Shown: piece by piece, positions 2 through 4,352 of the stretch
How positions within the stretch are numbered: the stretch's first letter is position 1
Layout: every line of letters starts with the position of its first letter
IMG/VR virus record: IMGVR_UViG_3300029499_000061
DNA length: 4,352 nt
From: a virus
Lineage: Duplodnaviria; Heunggongvirae; Uroviricota; Caudoviricetes
Reading direction: 5' to 3' (one strand)
The notes under the pieces: generated by a model
Told to the model about the DNA's origin: nothing
Seen by the model: only the letters and a program-made list of their open reading frames with translations
Databases searched by the model: none
Program-made: the position numbers and the translations under genes

Positions 2-298
2 GGTTTTAAGGGATTAATTCCTTCAAAAGTAAAATCTCGCCCGCAATGTTGTGACGATGACGCGATGATCATTTGCGGGTGCATGGCCCGTCTGAAAAAG
101 AACAACAGCGATTTGCACGATTTATTAGTAGATTATTATGTAGTCGGTATGACATTCATGTCACTGGCAGGTAAGCATTGCTGCTCTGATGGTTATATCG
201 GGAAAAGGTTACAAAAGGCTGAGGGCATAATTGAAGGGATGTTAATGGCATTAGATATCCGGTTAGAGATGGATATCGTTGTTAATAACTCTAATTAA
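2..298 (+). CDS. Putative late-gene antiterminator Q-like protein, C-terminal part (5' end lies outside the window)
   Basis: The reading frame is open from position 2 to the TAA at 296-298; the ORF track only shows it from the internal Met at 65. Cys-rich clusters (QCCDDD, CGC, HCC) are compatible with a Zn-binding Q-type protein. The call rests mainly on position immediately upstream of the lysis module, not on recognised sequence identity. Confidence 0.5.
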
Positions 299-315: not shown

Positions 316-349
316 AAAAATTATTAAAAATGGGGCGTTGAGACGCCCC
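316..349 (-). terminator. Candidate rho-independent terminator for the porin transcript
   Basis: 7-bp GC-rich stem (332-338 GGGGCGT / 343-349 ACGCCCC, 4-nt loop). Read on the - strand it is followed by AUUUUUAAUAAUUUUU (complement of 316-331). Lies about 140 nt past the porin stop. Confidence 0.45.
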
Positions 350-437
350 CAAAAATAAAGGGTAATATATAACAGAAGGTTTATATAGTTAGAAGCAAGG
401 TTGTGCTTCTAAAGGAAGTGGCTTGAGGGAGCCACTT

Positions 438-477
438 ATATGTTGGGGAGGCAACGCCTCCCGCAACATATCTTTTT
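438..477 (+). terminator. Candidate rho-independent terminator on the + strand downstream of the Q-like gene
   Basis: About 15-bp stem with one bulge (438-452 ATATGTTGGGGAGGC / 456-471 GCCTCCCGCAACATAT, loop AAC) followed by C-TTTTT at 472-477. The T-tract is on the + strand only. Confidence 0.6.
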
Positions 478-487
478 CGTAATCAGA

Positions 488-1570
488 TTAGAACTGGTAA
501 ACCAGACCTACAGCAACGATGTCATCAGTATCAATACCAGCTGTTTTGGTAAACTTACTATCGTCAATTAAGTTGATTTTGTAATCAACAAAAGTGGACA
601 TGTTTTTATTAAAGTAGTAAGTAGCACCGACATCGACATACTTGACTAAGTCTCGGTCACCATGAACACCAAGGTCTTTACCTTTTGACTGAAGGTAAGC
701 AACAGATGGGCGCAGACCGAAGTCAAACTGATATTGTGCTACTGCTTCAAAGTTTTGTGCTTTGTTTGCAATATGGTTATTACCAAAAACGGTCATATTC
801 TGAGTTTCAGAATATGTGGTAGCCAGATAGATATTGTTCGCATCATATTTCAGGCCTGCAGCCCATACTTCCGCATTTTTGCCGGAGGCATTGAATTTGC
901 TCTTACCATAGGCGACCTGACCGTCAGTGCGATCTGATTTAGCATAGGTTGCACCCACGCCGAATCCTTCATACTCATAAGTAGTGGAGAAACCGAAACC
1001 ATCACCATTGGCTTCAGTTACGTCAGTGCGGTCATTTTTACCCTGATACTGAGCAGCAAAGTTCAGGCCATCGACCAGACCAAAGAAGTCGTTGTTACGA
1101 TAAGTTGCAACACCAGTAGTGCGACCAGTCATGAACACATCTGTTTGGGTCCAGGTATCACCACCGAATTCTGGCAGGACGTCAGTCCACGCACCGATGT
1201 CGTATGCTACACCGTAGTTACGGCCGTAATCGATTGAGCCGTAATCACCAAATTTCAGGCCTGCAAATGCAAGACGGGTTTTGTCTTTGGAAGAACCTTG
1301 AGATTCAGCGCGGTTGCCTTTGAATTCATATTCCCACTGACCGAAACCAGTCAGTTGATCGTTGATTTGGGTTTCACCTTTGAAGCCAAGACGGGCATAA
1401 GTAGTATCACCATCATCTGCATCATTAGAGGAGAAGTAGTGCTTAGCATTAACTTTCCCGTACAGATCCAGCTTGTTACTGTCTTTATTATAAATTTCAG
1501 CTGCCTGAGCAGACATCGCCATCAGTACTGATGCAGCTACAGCAGAAATTGCCACTGTTAATTTTTTCAT
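488..1570 (-). CDS. nmpC: Outer-membrane general porin, OmpC/OmpF family (phage-encoded NmpC/Lc type)
   Basis: 360-aa ORF. N-terminal signal peptide [23 protein letters not shown] with an AQA-AE cleavage motif. Mature N-terminus [16 protein letters not shown] matches the AE(V/I)[13 protein letters not shown] start of enterobacterial porins. C-terminal VGLVYQF with terminal Phe is the typical OMP beta-barrel signature. Opposite strand between Q and S, as for nmpC/lc in lambdoid prophages. Confidence 0.95.
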
Positions 1571-1998
1571 CGTGAGCCCTTTTTTTTGAACTATTATTAA
1601 AAAATGATGTCACTGCGCGATAAATATTCATCTAATCAATGTGATTATTTCAAGATGTAAGTTTTGGTTTCTCGTTTAATTTGTGAAGTAGATCTCTATT
1701 TTTATCTGAACTTTTTTCTATCGAATCCTATTCATGGCTCTTGGCTGAATAAAAATAAATCTATTAGCCAATTTATATTAATGGCTGTTATTTATAAGTG
1801 CTCTATAATTTGAAGGTTCAATTTAAATTGGCTAAAAATAACGCTGGAAATTATTTGTTGGTTATTTGTTGAGATTTGCTTATGTATTTGTAGTGGTGTT
1901 TTCAATACTCGGTAGCATTCTCGCAAATATCATTTAGTGGTTTACGTACGTAAAAAATTGGTTATGCTGTTAAGAGTGGTTACTTCGTCACACAGCTT
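1571..1998 (-). promoter_or_regulatory. AT-rich upstream region of the porin gene (promoter and 5' UTR presumed to lie here; exact -35/-10 not resolved)
   Basis: Long AT-rich non-coding stretch directly upstream of the porin start at 1570, with a weak AGGG Shine-Dalgarno 7-10 nt before the ATG. No convincing sigma70 hexamer pair could be assigned by eye. Confidence 0.3.
1851..1891. repeat. Helically phased short direct repeats (TTATTTGTTG x2 in tandem, then two degenerate copies)
   Basis: TTATTTGTTGG at 1851-1861 and TTATTTGTTGA at 1862-1872. The ATTTG core recurs at 1853, 1864, 1874 and 1886, spacing 11, 10 and 12 bp. Confidence 0.5.
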
Positions 1999-2030
1999 AA
2001 ACCCGCCGTCGAGCGGGTTTTTCCATTTTT
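1999..2030 (+). terminator. Candidate rho-independent terminator on the + strand about 115 bp upstream of the holin gene
   Basis: 8-bp stem (1999-2006 AAACCCGC / 2013-2020 GCGGGTTT, loop CGTCGA) followed by TTTTTCCATTTTTT. Confidence 0.6.
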
Positions 2031-2143
2031 TGAGTCTCGATATTAGCTGATAACCCAATACCTGAGTTATTCACTGACTCCGAGTCTGTTACGTTTCGTA
2101 GTATTCCCTCAATTTACACCCGCTTTGTCTGCGAGGTGGGGTT

Positions 2144-2359
2144 ATGAAATCCATGGATAAGTTAACAACGGGTGTCGCCTATGGCACCTCAGCAGGTAGT
2201 GCCGGGTACTGGTTTTTACAGCTGCTCGATAAAGTCACGCCCTCACAGTGGGCAGCAATAGGTGTGCTGGGTAGCCTGGTATTTGGCCTGCTGACGTACC
2301 TGACAAACCTTTATTTCAAGATTAAAGAAGATAAGCGCAAGGCTGCGAGAGGTGAATAA
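2144..2359 (+). CDS. S: Class II holin (pinholin) of the phage 21 S type, with dual-start motif
   Basis: 71 aa beginning Met1-Lys2-Ser3-Met4, the dual start that gives the 71-aa antiholin and 68-aa holin in S21 (alternative start at 2153). Two TMDs: a Gly/Ala-rich SAR-like TMD1 ([21 protein letters not shown]) and TMD2 ([18 protein letters not shown]), then a charged C-terminus [19 protein letters not shown] Shine-Dalgarno upstream. Near-identical to my recollection of S21. Confidence 0.92.
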
Positions 2360-2856
2360 TGCCTCCATCATTACGAAAAGCTGTTGCTGCTGCTATTGGT
2401 GGCGGGGCTATTGCTATAGCATCTGTGTTAATCACTGGCCCAAGTGGTAACGATGGTCTGGAAGGTGTGAGACATAATCCTTACAAAGACATAGTTGGTG
2501 TATGGACTGTATGTTACGGGCATACAGGAAAAGACATCATTCCCGGTAAAACGTATACCGAAGCAGAGTGCAAAGCCCTCCTGAATAAAGACCTTGCCAC
2601 TGTCGCCAGACAAATTAACCGGTACATCAAAGTCGATATACCGGAAACAACGCGCGGCGCTCTTTACTCGTTCGTCTACAACGTGGGTGCTGGCAATTTC
2701 AGAACATCGACGCTTCTTCGCAAAATAAACCAGGGTGATATTAAAGGCGCATGTGATCAGCTACGGCGCTGGACATACGCTGGCGGTAATCAATGGAAAG
2801 GACTGATGACTCGCCGTGAGATTGAGCGTGAAGTCTGTTTGTGGGGGAAACAATGA
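2359..2856 (+). CDS. R: SAR (signal-anchor-release) endolysin, T4-lysozyme-like muramidase
   Basis: 165 aa. N-terminal Gly/Ala-rich weakly hydrophobic SAR domain ([20 protein letters not shown]). Glu35, Asp44 and Thr50 sit at the Glu-9-Asp-6-Thr spacing of the T4 lysozyme catalytic triad. Start overlaps the holin stop (TAATG); stop overlaps the Rz start (ATGA). Confidence 0.93.
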
Positions 2857-3320
2857 GCAGAGTAACCGCGATTATCTCCGCTCTGGTTATCTGCATCATC
2901 GTCTGCCTGTCATGGGCTGTTAATCATTACCGTGATAATGCAATCGCCTACAAAGAACAGCGCGATAACAAGGCCAGTGAACTGGAGAAGGCGAACGCCA
3001 CCATTACTGACATGCAGCAGCGCCAGCGTGATGCTGATGCACTCGATGATAAATACACGAAGGAGTTAGCTGATGCGAAAGCTGAAAATGATGCTCTTCG
3101 GCGCAAGCTTGATAATGGTGGTCGGGTGCTCGTCAAAGGAAAATGCCCTGTGCCATCCTCAGCCGAAACCTCCAGCGCCTCCGGCATGGGCAATGATGCC
3201 ACCGTCGAACTCTCTCCAGTTGCTGGACGAAACGTTCTCGGTATCCGGGACGGAATTATCCGCGACCAAACAGCATTGAGAACGCTTCAGGAATACATCA
3301 GGACGCAATGCCTTCGATGA
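2853..3320 (+). CDS. Rz: Rz inner-membrane spanin (i-spanin)
   Basis: ATG at 2853 overlaps the endolysin stop; the track ORF begins 4 codons earlier at a GTG (2841). N-terminal TM segment [20 protein letters not shown], then a charged, helix-prone periplasmic domain. The N-terminal ~90 residues closely resemble lambda Rz as I recall it; the C-terminal part differs. Confidence 0.85.
3073..3279 (+). CDS. Rz1: Rz1 outer-membrane lipoprotein spanin (o-spanin), embedded in Rz in the +1 frame
   Basis: 68 aa. Signal peptide [19 protein letters not shown] with lipobox VVGC, so Cys19 would be the lipidated residue. Proline-rich mature part ([16 protein letters not shown]). AGGAG Shine-Dalgarno 7 nt upstream of the ATG. 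Lies wholly inside Rz. Start context MRKLKMML parallels lambda Rz1 (MLKLKMML). Confidence 0.8.
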
Positions 3321-3493
3321 TAGCGATAATTTTACTCATCATCCTTCACATCTGGCTCTGTAGACAGGGTGGTGCTCACTTCTGGAGTGAATCCAGATTA
3401 AACATCTCATTGCTGATGCTTGATATTGAGCATTTTGCGCGCGGTAAGGGGCTGCGTTGAGATAAGAGCCAGTCATTACAAATACCAGGATTT

Positions 3494-3517
3494 AGCCTCG
3501 CATTCGCGGGGCTTTTT
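3494..3517 (+). terminator. Candidate rho-independent terminator downstream of the spanin genes
   Basis: 7-bp stem with one G-U pair (3495-3501 GCCTCGC / 3506-3512 GCGGGGC, loop ATTC) followed by TTTTTATT. Confidence 0.5.
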
Positions 3518-3811
3518 ATTGCCATTACAAAAGCCACTTCCTACAGAGTGGCTTTGATAATGGCTTATACCCTACACGGGATAACTTAACTGATATCCCT
3601 TTTAAAGGATAAAGGTATTCAAGCCTGACACATCATGCGCTGTATCGTCGCCGTATTCCCGTATTAACAGAGACCGTAGCCCGACGGGGAACTCCTTCTG
3701 CGCGAGTGTGCGGGAATAATCAATAACGATGCACACCGGGGTTACCGGGTACACATATTTCATCATGCCAGCGAGTCCGGTTCTGGCACGGAAGAAACCG
3801 GACGTTATGAT

Positions 3812-4222
3812 TTAGTGCGGAAATATTTGTGTAGTGTTCTGAATGTTCTCAGTAAAGAGTAATGAATTATCAAAGGTATAGTAATACCTTTTGTTTTCGT
3901 GGATATTTGTAATCCATCTGAAAACCCCTGCTGTAGCAAGATTTTTCCTGTATTCGTAAAATGATAACTCTCCTGATTTGAATCCTTTTAAGGTGGCTTC
4001 TATAAGGCATTTATTTTTTGAAAATCTTACATTTACAACCTTACTCTGTCCTTTTATTAAAACCGTATTATCGTTTTCAAGAACAAGATGAATATTCTCT
4101 GTGGCTAAATAGTAAATGTAATGTGAGACATTGTGACGTTTTAGTTCAGAATAAAACCAGTGATAGTTTAAATTATTTCGCACTTTATCGAATATTTGTT
4201 TAAAAATGGCAACCTGAGCCAT
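3812..4222 (-). CDS. ybcV: DUF1398-family protein, YbcV-like (homologous to the gene next to bor at the right end of lambda and in DLP12); function unknown
   Basis: Track ORF is 3812..4237 (141 aa). The internal Met at 4222 is preferred because GGAAGG sits 7 nt upstream and the 136-aa product begins MAQVAIFK, matching the lambda/DLP12 homologue as I recall it. Position beyond the spanins, on the opposite strand, matches synteny. Confidence 0.7.
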
Positions 4223-4352
4223 TGTAGTACCTTCCATGTGATATGAAGGTACCTAGGGAAGGTGCGAATAAGCGGGGAAATTCTTCTCGGCTGACTCAGT
4301 CATTTCATTTCTTCATGTTTGAGCCGATTTTTTCTCCCGTAAATGCCTTGAA

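Follow-up and report, generated by a model that had tools for sequence, protein, structure and literature searches.

The DNA analysed here, a 4,352-nucleotide stretch of the IMG/VR virus record IMGVR_UViG_3300029499_000061 (hereafter the window), covers the late-control and lysis region of a lambdoid E. coli prophage of the DLP12 type. Within it, an intact nmpC/lc conversion cassette appears to lie between the gene for the antiterminator Q and pR', the late promoter, with the porin and the lysis genes forming divergent transcription units, a reading to which we assign a probability of about 80%. The features on which this reading draws are listed below in window coordinates.

2..298, plus strand: 3' part of quuD, encoding a Q-family late antiterminator of 127 aa in full (PF06530, E 7.8e-35; named quuD in identical genomes).
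322..349, minus strand: predicted intrinsic terminator of the porin transcript, with the hairpin GGGGCGTCTCAACGCCCC (349..332) and a U-run after it (terminator scan, RNA fold).
322..487, minus strand: structured 165-nt porin 3'UTR comprising three stem-loops and the terminator (RNA fold).
488..1570, minus strand: porin gene of the NmpC/Lc type, 360 aa (Porin_1, OmpC subfamily, structure-sequence matches, alignment to Lc and NmpC).
1571..1935, no strand assigned: AT-rich control region (28.8% GC) that occurs only together with the porin (GC content; matched only by porin-bearing phages).
1588..1620, plus strand: sigma-E-like promoter GAACTA-N16-TCACT (1588-1614, motif read from the sequence) and probable DLP12 lysis start (+1 at ~1619, from an amplicon description).
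1679-1699, no strand assigned: CRP-type site ATTTGTGAAGTAGATCTCTAT (exact match to a CRP site annotated in the PA-2 record).
1941..1968, plus strand: predicted late promoter pR', with -35 TTTACG (1941-1946), a 16-bp spacer and -10 TATGCT (1963-1968) (homology to annotated pR').
1971..1998, plus strand: probable pR' start at A1975 and conserved early transcribed region (13-mer identity; fit to the 258-nt Sakai RNA).
1999..2032, plus strand: tR'-like hairpin AAACCCGCCGTCGAGCGGGTTT with a T-rich tail (terminator scan; homologous to the first terminator of 933W and VT1-Sakai).
2144-2359, plus strand: essD, holin of the phage-21 type (Pfam Phage_holin_2_1).
2359-2856, plus strand: rrrD, SAR endolysin (Pfam Phage_lysozyme).
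2853-3320, plus strand: Rz (Pfam Phage_lysis).
3073-3279, plus strand: Rz1, embedded in Rz (Pfam Rz1).
3812-4222, minus strand: DUF1398 gene (Pfam and RefSeq annotation).

As the earlier note had described, the porin gene sits between a Q-like gene and the lysis genes, on the opposite strand. The Q-like gene on its left is recognized by PF06530, and the holin, endolysin and Rz genes on its right are all on the plus strand. RefSeq names the genes at an identical locus quuD, "porin OmpC", essD, rrrD and "lysis protein". QuuD is 78% identical to Q of phage 933W up to the residues ...RLEMD (at about window 278), beyond which it diverges and ends 17 aa earlier, and it distantly matches the Q21 structures 6P18 and 6JNX. 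The prophage in a genome identical to the window keeps bet, gam, repressor, replication and nin genes, and the RefSeq annotation of that genome lists nothing phage-like to the right of the DUF1398 gene. There, an IS5 begins at window position 4257 (the window's final 96 bp match the end of K-12 IS5B at 100% identity) and envY comes next. Since phage genes are lacking past DUF1398, the "late operon" of this locus consists only of the lysis cassette of a defective prophage.

The open reading frame at 488..1570 on the minus strand starts with ATG, encodes 360 aa and is confirmed as an intact general porin of the NmpC/Lc type carried by this DLP12-type prophage. Porin_1 (PF00267) aligns with the product over its entire profile (positions 1-337 of 337, E 1.9e-151) at 504.7 bits against a cut-off of 23.7, a match to the porin family that is far above chance. 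The product also passes the NCBIfam cut-off for the OmpC subfamily (521 bits vs 484), and its residues 24-360 match the crystal-structure chains of OmpC, OmpK36, PhoE and OmpF at E values from 1e-137 to 1e-111. Judged by its sequence, the porin is exportable and intact: the 23-aa Sec signal peptide, encoded by 1502-1570, has the same sequence as the lc sig_peptide in J02580, the PEFGG motif of the constriction loop is present (...VLPEFGGD...) and the C-terminus has an aromatic end (...VYQF).

For a direct comparison, we used Lc translated from lc in the PA-2 record J02580 and the K-12 NmpC sequence obtained, without IS5, by joining the two annotated nmpC fragments. With each of these the window porin shares 331 of 365 aligned positions (90.7% identity), and the family suggested beforehand, that of the OmpC/OmpF general porins, is the one in which the protein falls. 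Unlike nmpC of MG1655, which is annotated as fragments with IS5B, the window reading frame is whole, so the earlier description of a full-length, uninterrupted copy stands. The N-terminal 180 aa are almost identical to those of Lc and K-12 NmpC, and the differences are concentrated in the C-terminal half, in five short segments (~183-190, 219-232, 268-272, 308-311 and 340-350) that, from the OmpF/OmpC topology, are presumably the surface loops L4-L8.

The 190 bp of intergenic DNA that separate the stop codons of Q and the porin (299-487) are taken up by the porin 3'UTR and its terminator. The 3'UTR folds with a minimum free energy of -63.4 kcal/mol (z = -9.0 vs shuffles), its sequence is identical in K-12 and PA-2, and the terminator is conserved in K-12, PA-2 and other phages. 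The nmpC gene of the P1-like phage P7 shares 75% DNA identity with the window over 357-1633, which indicates that most of the 3'UTR travels with the porin gene; in the P7 copy the hairpins are kept while 8 pairs are changed on both sides. As in the NmpC/Lc porins, the stop codon and an intrinsic terminator therefore enclose an ipeX-type 3'UTR, and we take 322..487 (minus strand) to correspond to the ipeX region of nmpC/lc. In work by Castillo-Keller and colleagues from 2006, ipeX is reportedly the untranslated stretch from the nmpC/lc stop to the terminator, and its RNA is said to lower OmpC/OmpF. An Rfam search at E values up to 1 returned no family in the porin 3'UTR, so Rfam gives no confirmation of ipeX. 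IpeX is listed as a regulator of ompC in two papers (PMC3333887, PMC5745476).

Where late transcription starts relative to the porin was addressed by determining which parts of the two spacers flanking the gene are shared with other phages. The spacer from the porin start to essD (1571-2143, 573 bp) matches 356 phage records, 277 of them at only 60-80% identity, and the sampled matches in this identity range, mostly porin-less Stx phages, all cover only window ~1940-2022. In 933W and VT1-Sakai, the counterpart of this block is located at the Q stop and is annotated as pR', a qut site and a rho-independent terminator, and the -35 of pR' overlaps the last Q codons in both phages. The window and the 933W pR' block are identical at 64 of 83 positions (77% over 83 nt); pR' of 933W (20666-20693) consists of TTTACG, 16 bp and TATCAT, and aligns with TTTACG, 16 bp and TATGCT in the window. 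Across six porin-bearing loci, no part of the spacer is more conserved than the block, and pR' is nearly invariant in the five besides the window. After the -10, TAAGAGTGGTTAC (1971-1983) is an invariant 13-mer that occurs once each in K-12, PA-2, 434B, 933W, VT1-Sakai and SfII, a Shigella phage without the porin; it is a candidate region for Q loading or pausing.

In both Sakai Stx phages, the primary pR' start and the 3' end have been mapped by dRNA-seq and Term-seq, respectively, and the pR'-tR' RNA is 258 nt long (PMC7547250). The coordinates in that paper belong to a sequence version other than NC_002695.2, and the published length was used to fit the start site. In NC_002695.2, counting from the A that lies seven nt past the -10 (TATCAT) gives exactly 258 nt to the point where the T-run of the second terminator ends, and this A aligns with A1975 of the window. 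Promoter, early transcribed region and terminator are each homologous to those of the mapped pR' unit. The pR' hexamers themselves are weak (8 of 12 consensus matches): a consensus sigma-70 scan at 9 of 12 gave nothing useful, and a relaxed scan at 8 of 12 returned weak sites near Q and near essD alike, so that it had no power to single out pR'. The assignment of 1941-1968 as a predicted promoter rests on homology and conservation.

The hairpin at 1999-2020 with its T-rich tail is the sole terminator-like element that the terminator scan detected between pR' and essD. In the Stx phages, RNA extends beyond the homologous first hairpin to end at a second terminator, which the window lacks, so we regard 1999-2020 as a putative tR' of uncertain efficiency. 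Neither the terminator scan nor the alignment with Stx phages revealed a second terminator before essD, and a StxS-type sRNA unit (a ~258-nt RNA with a 74-nt 3' fragment and the second terminator) was not found, the Stx homology stopping after the first hairpin. At E values up to 1, Rfam identified no family in the pR' region, where a sub-threshold match to Trp_leader (1904-2026) merely reflects the terminator hairpin. The same search gave a sub-threshold match to STnc560 at 3392-3583. We also considered ~1908-1940, upstream of the -35, as a remnant of the 3' end of Q, and rejected it because the similarity to the C-terminal coding sequence of Q933W is too weak.

The AT-rich region that separates the porin start codon from the pR' block may hold a further start for the lysis genes. 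A reporter amplicon for the DLP12 lysis promoter was described as spanning -121 to +650 (PMC7918800). On the window, the forward primer falls at 1498 and the reverse primer at ~2266, which places the cited +1 of the lysis cassette at ~1619. Reconstructed in this way from the amplicon description, a lysis start would lie in the porin leader DNA and be oriented away from the porin. The regulators listed for the lysis cassette are a Q-type antiterminator, RpoE and Hha (PMC7918800). The PA-2 record annotates a second "CRP site", the counterpart of which is window 1975-1995 and coincides with +1 to +21 of pR'. Because the porin-less Stx phages conserve 1975-1995 too, this stretch is better explained by pR'/Q function.

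These positions bear directly on the relationship between the two units. The pR' homologue is not adjacent to the Q gene; its distance from the Q stop (298) is 1.64 kb, it lies ~370 bp past the porin start codon, and since it points away from the porin, the porin and the lysis operon are predicted to be divergent rather than overlapping. The homology of Q to 933W ends at window 247-278, and the gap between the Q-body block and the pR' block amounts to 88 bp in 933W vs 1692 bp in the window. The simplest reading of these boundaries is that a porin cassette of ~1.66 kb (~278-1935) separates the body of Q from pR'. This probable self-contained lysogenic-conversion cassette, inserted between the body of the antiterminator gene and the late promoter, contains the AT-rich control region with the CRP-type site, the porin open reading frame, the 165-nt 3'UTR and a terminator of its own.

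The earlier note had held that any Q-dependent late transcript must cross the porin antisense over about 1.1 kb, a claim that assumes pR' directly after Q as in lambda. Under this arrangement, late transcription would be convergent with the porin and would shut it off during lytic growth. We consider it highly improbable. It is true that pR' adjoins the Q stop in lambda, 933W and related phages, that three weak 8-of-12 sigma-70 matches are found on the plus strand at 252-390, and that a Q-modified polymerase could read through the porin. However, 299-487 bears no resemblance to any known pR' and is instead the porin 3'UTR and terminator, part of which moves with the porin into P7; a pR' homologue complete with early transcribed region and hairpin is located at 1941-2025, to the right of the porin; and the published lysis-promoter construct omits everything left of 1498 (PMC7918800). 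No late start was found upstream of the porin 3' end, from which a transcript would cross the gene, and both candidate starts (~1619 and A1975) are to the right of the ATG at 1570. The claim of an obligatory antisense late transcript is therefore not upheld. The late transcript most likely starts beyond the porin and runs away from it: pR' (start A1975) and the terminator at 1999-2020 would lie beyond the porin 5' end, with the promoter firing rightward into essD-rrrD-Rz/Rz1, and the Q-dependent transcript would not cross the porin.

Any antisense RNA over the porin would instead have to come from the early transcript that carries Q. Such RNA could arise if the early, pR-derived quuD transcript, and not a late promoter, were read through into the porin, limited by Rho and untranslated past the Q stop. 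We regard this as a minor but real possibility. The terminator scan detected no convincing intrinsic terminator on the plus strand in the interval from the Q stop at 298 to the porin: its single plus-strand candidate (254-277) is a weak hairpin with three GC pairs inside Q, and the hairpin at 332-349 has its U-run on the minus strand only. On the other hand, synthesis of untranslated RNA is generally expected to be ended by Rho after no more than a few hundred nt. Because early read-through concerns only the origin of antisense RNA, it lends no support to the claim about the late transcript.

A more elaborate version of the divergent arrangement would couple the two units. In this version, the cassette inserted into the 3' end of an ancestral 933W-type Q, clipping ~17 residues and moving pR' by 1.6 kb, and the 370-bp AT-rich divergent region couples both units; a sigma-E-type promoter (1588-1619, plus strand) sets lysis transcription head-to-head with the porin, and the early transcribed region of pR' (1975-1995) doubles as the lc "CRP site" annotated in 1986, so that porin output and lysis/vesiculation output are reciprocally wired. 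We find this coupling quite doubtful. If it were true, envelope stress would start transcription of the lysis cassette against that of the porin, either head-to-head or at its expense.

Returning to a porin that is divergent from, and not necessarily coupled to, the lysis genes, the literature on Lc and NmpC suggests what the cassette may do. The lysogen would express the porin from the gene's own promoter, of the host type, and the protein would insert as a general diffusion trimer; the 3'UTR of the porin mRNA would lower OmpC/OmpF, so that the major porins are swapped. The swap may in turn alter permeability and deprive superinfecting phages of OmpC/OmpF as receptors. It is also conceivable, though in our view unlikely, that the porin is quiescent cargo, silenced in its AT-rich context, and that the intact reading frame has no phenotype in this strain. 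The GC content of the upstream region (28.8%) is typical of targets of xenogeneic silencing, and the genome identical to the window carries a defective prophage. Against silence, the reading frame and the 3'UTR are intact and very widespread, PA-2 lysogens make Lc according to the classical literature, and NmpC has been found at the protein level in STEC proteomes. The designation "quiescent porin gene" for nmpC appears in the title of a reference cited in PMC3333887 and PMC5745476.

The organization of the window can be compared with the late control region of the Stx phages (Q933W/H-19B-type Q, pR', StxS, tR' and stx). Both have a homologous Q (78%), pR', early transcribed region and first hairpin, and both carry accessory cargo between Q and the lysis genes. 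In the Stx phages, the cargo (tRNAs and stx) is downstream of pR', on the same strand and expressed late, whereas the cargo of the window is upstream of pR', on the opposite strand and predicted to use its own promoter. The second terminator and the 3' part of StxS are found in the Stx phages and neither is present in the window. Placing the cargo between Q and pR' on the opposite strand corrects the presumed architecture and suggests a self-promoted gene expressed in the lysogen: the porin would be neither a passenger of the late transcript, like stx, nor a target of convergent late transcription. This affects how prophage RNA-seq is to be read, as well as the assignment of antibiotic-permeability or phage-receptor phenotypes to chromosomal vs prophage porins. 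Phage 1H12 was considered as a second example of the architecture, as it has the same truncated Q and a lipocalin gene on the reverse strand, and was rejected because it lacks a pR' of this type.

Work on nmpC/lc as a porin gene carried by phages goes back to the 1970s-80s. The locus is already known and ordinary, and the window holds its common intact form. In the cryptic prophage DLP12 (qsr') of K-12, the gene order is the same (quuD, nmpC on the minus strand, essD, rrrD, rzpD/rzoD and, further on, ybcV), and the 3'UTR and the pR'/hairpin region are identical to those of the window. The two differ in that K-12 nmpC is split by IS5B after codon 346, whereas the window copy is intact, and in that the window lacks borD and has the IS5 end at 4257 in its place. 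The lc gene of PA-2 (porin Lc, "protein 2", J02580) shares the signal peptide, the CRP-type site (window 1679-1699), the 3'UTR and a position adjoining the lysis genes; Lc differs in length (365 aa vs 360 aa) and in carrying another loop allele, and PA-2 is viable as a phage, in contrast to the prophage of the genome identical to the window, which lacks its right arm. P7 nmpC belongs to the same porin family and has a structured 3'UTR, and its context, between ssb and odaA, is unrelated. The chromosomal general porins OmpC and OmpD are of the same porin family, and the window porin has full-length similarity to the OmpC, OmpK36 and PhoE structures; chromosomal OmpC differs in not being phage-borne. 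The RefSeq label "porin OmpC" hides the prophage origin of the window gene.

At least 80% of the porin gene is present in 2503 of 5426 complete E. coli genomes. With the intact form in nearly half of complete E. coli genomes, the locus has little importance beyond its correct annotation. The search of E. coli genomes returned 1187 records that match the porin gene at ≥99% identity, and some copies are split by IS1 or IS5. Among phages, the module of Q, reverse-strand porin, S and R occurs in ~36 lambdoid records, including PA-2, ev207, mEp332 and 434B, the last being a 434 derivative that acquired the K-12 qsr' region together with its IS5. At least 80% of the window was found in one place in 897 of the 5426 complete E. 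coli genomes, and the whole window was recovered in one piece at 100% identity in three complete genomes; a fourth matches with its porin split by IS5.

The window ends within an insertion sequence, which we delimited as follows.

4257-4352: terminal 96 bp of IS5, forming the window's final 96 bp and matching the end of K-12 IS5B at 100% identity

The insertion point lies directly 3' of ...ACCTAG, and position 4256 is also the limit of the window match in most other genomes. The porin gene itself is thus free of IS5, but a copy of the element is located 2.7 kb from it. In NZ_AP022173.1, which is identical to the window, envY, ybcH and nfrA lie directly to the right of IS5 (L001 16257-19749), and the K-12 genes ybcW, nohD, tfaD, appY and ompT are missing. 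A deletion at IS5 appears to have taken the right arm of the prophage together with ompT in this genome.

An IS5-interrupted porin is found in 434B (OL657227), a laboratory derivative of phage 434 that carries the K-12 DLP12 Q-nmpC::IS5-S region (L004 2307-5898), with IS5 after codon 346 of nmpC. The depositors labelled this region as non-434 DNA, and it looks like a qsr'-type recombinant acquired from the K-12 host. The 434B record also annotates a dual-start holin/antiholin (S71/S68), and essD in the window has the same arrangement, its start (MKSMDK..., 2144-2155) including two in-frame Met codons at positions 1 and 4.

Reverse-oriented cargo may recurrently occupy the interval that separates the Q body from the late promoter pR'. 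In phage 1H12, Q is truncated at ...RLEMD, the same point as in the window, and is followed by a reverse-strand lipocalin gene, blc (L007 2415-3473). In phage SfII, a pR' homologue is immediately preceded by genes on the reverse strand (L008 421-1577). Two further signals were noted between the porin ATG and essD. The distal "CRP binding site" of the 1986 PA-2 lc record (L003 1730-1750) corresponds exactly to window 1975-1995, i.e., +1 to +21 of the predicted pR', an early transcribed region that is conserved in Stx phages lacking the porin. The second is a promoter-like motif.

1588-1620 (+): sigma-E-like motif GAACTA-N16-TCACT, 20-50 bp past the porin ATG on the strand opposite to the porin

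This motif coincides with the +1 (~1619) that follows from the amplicon published for the DLP12 lysis promoter, and it would be positioned inside porin leader DNA.

Downstream of Rz, whose C-terminus differs from that of K-12 Rz, borD (flanked in K-12 by rzpD and ybcV) is missing at 3300-3640 and replaced by ~340 bp of non-homologous DNA with two features.

3308-3460: 50-aa ORF, PHROG 11822, unknown function
3494-3513 (+): terminator-like hairpin

The hairpin, 3' of Rz, is overlapped by a sub-threshold Rfam match (3392-3583, +; 19.9 bits versus a gathering threshold of 55, E 0.47) to STnc560, a Salmonella Hfq-binding sRNA, which may reflect chance or a distantly related prophage sRNA. The same ~340-bp segment is carried by phages mEp460, Ayreon, and Kati.
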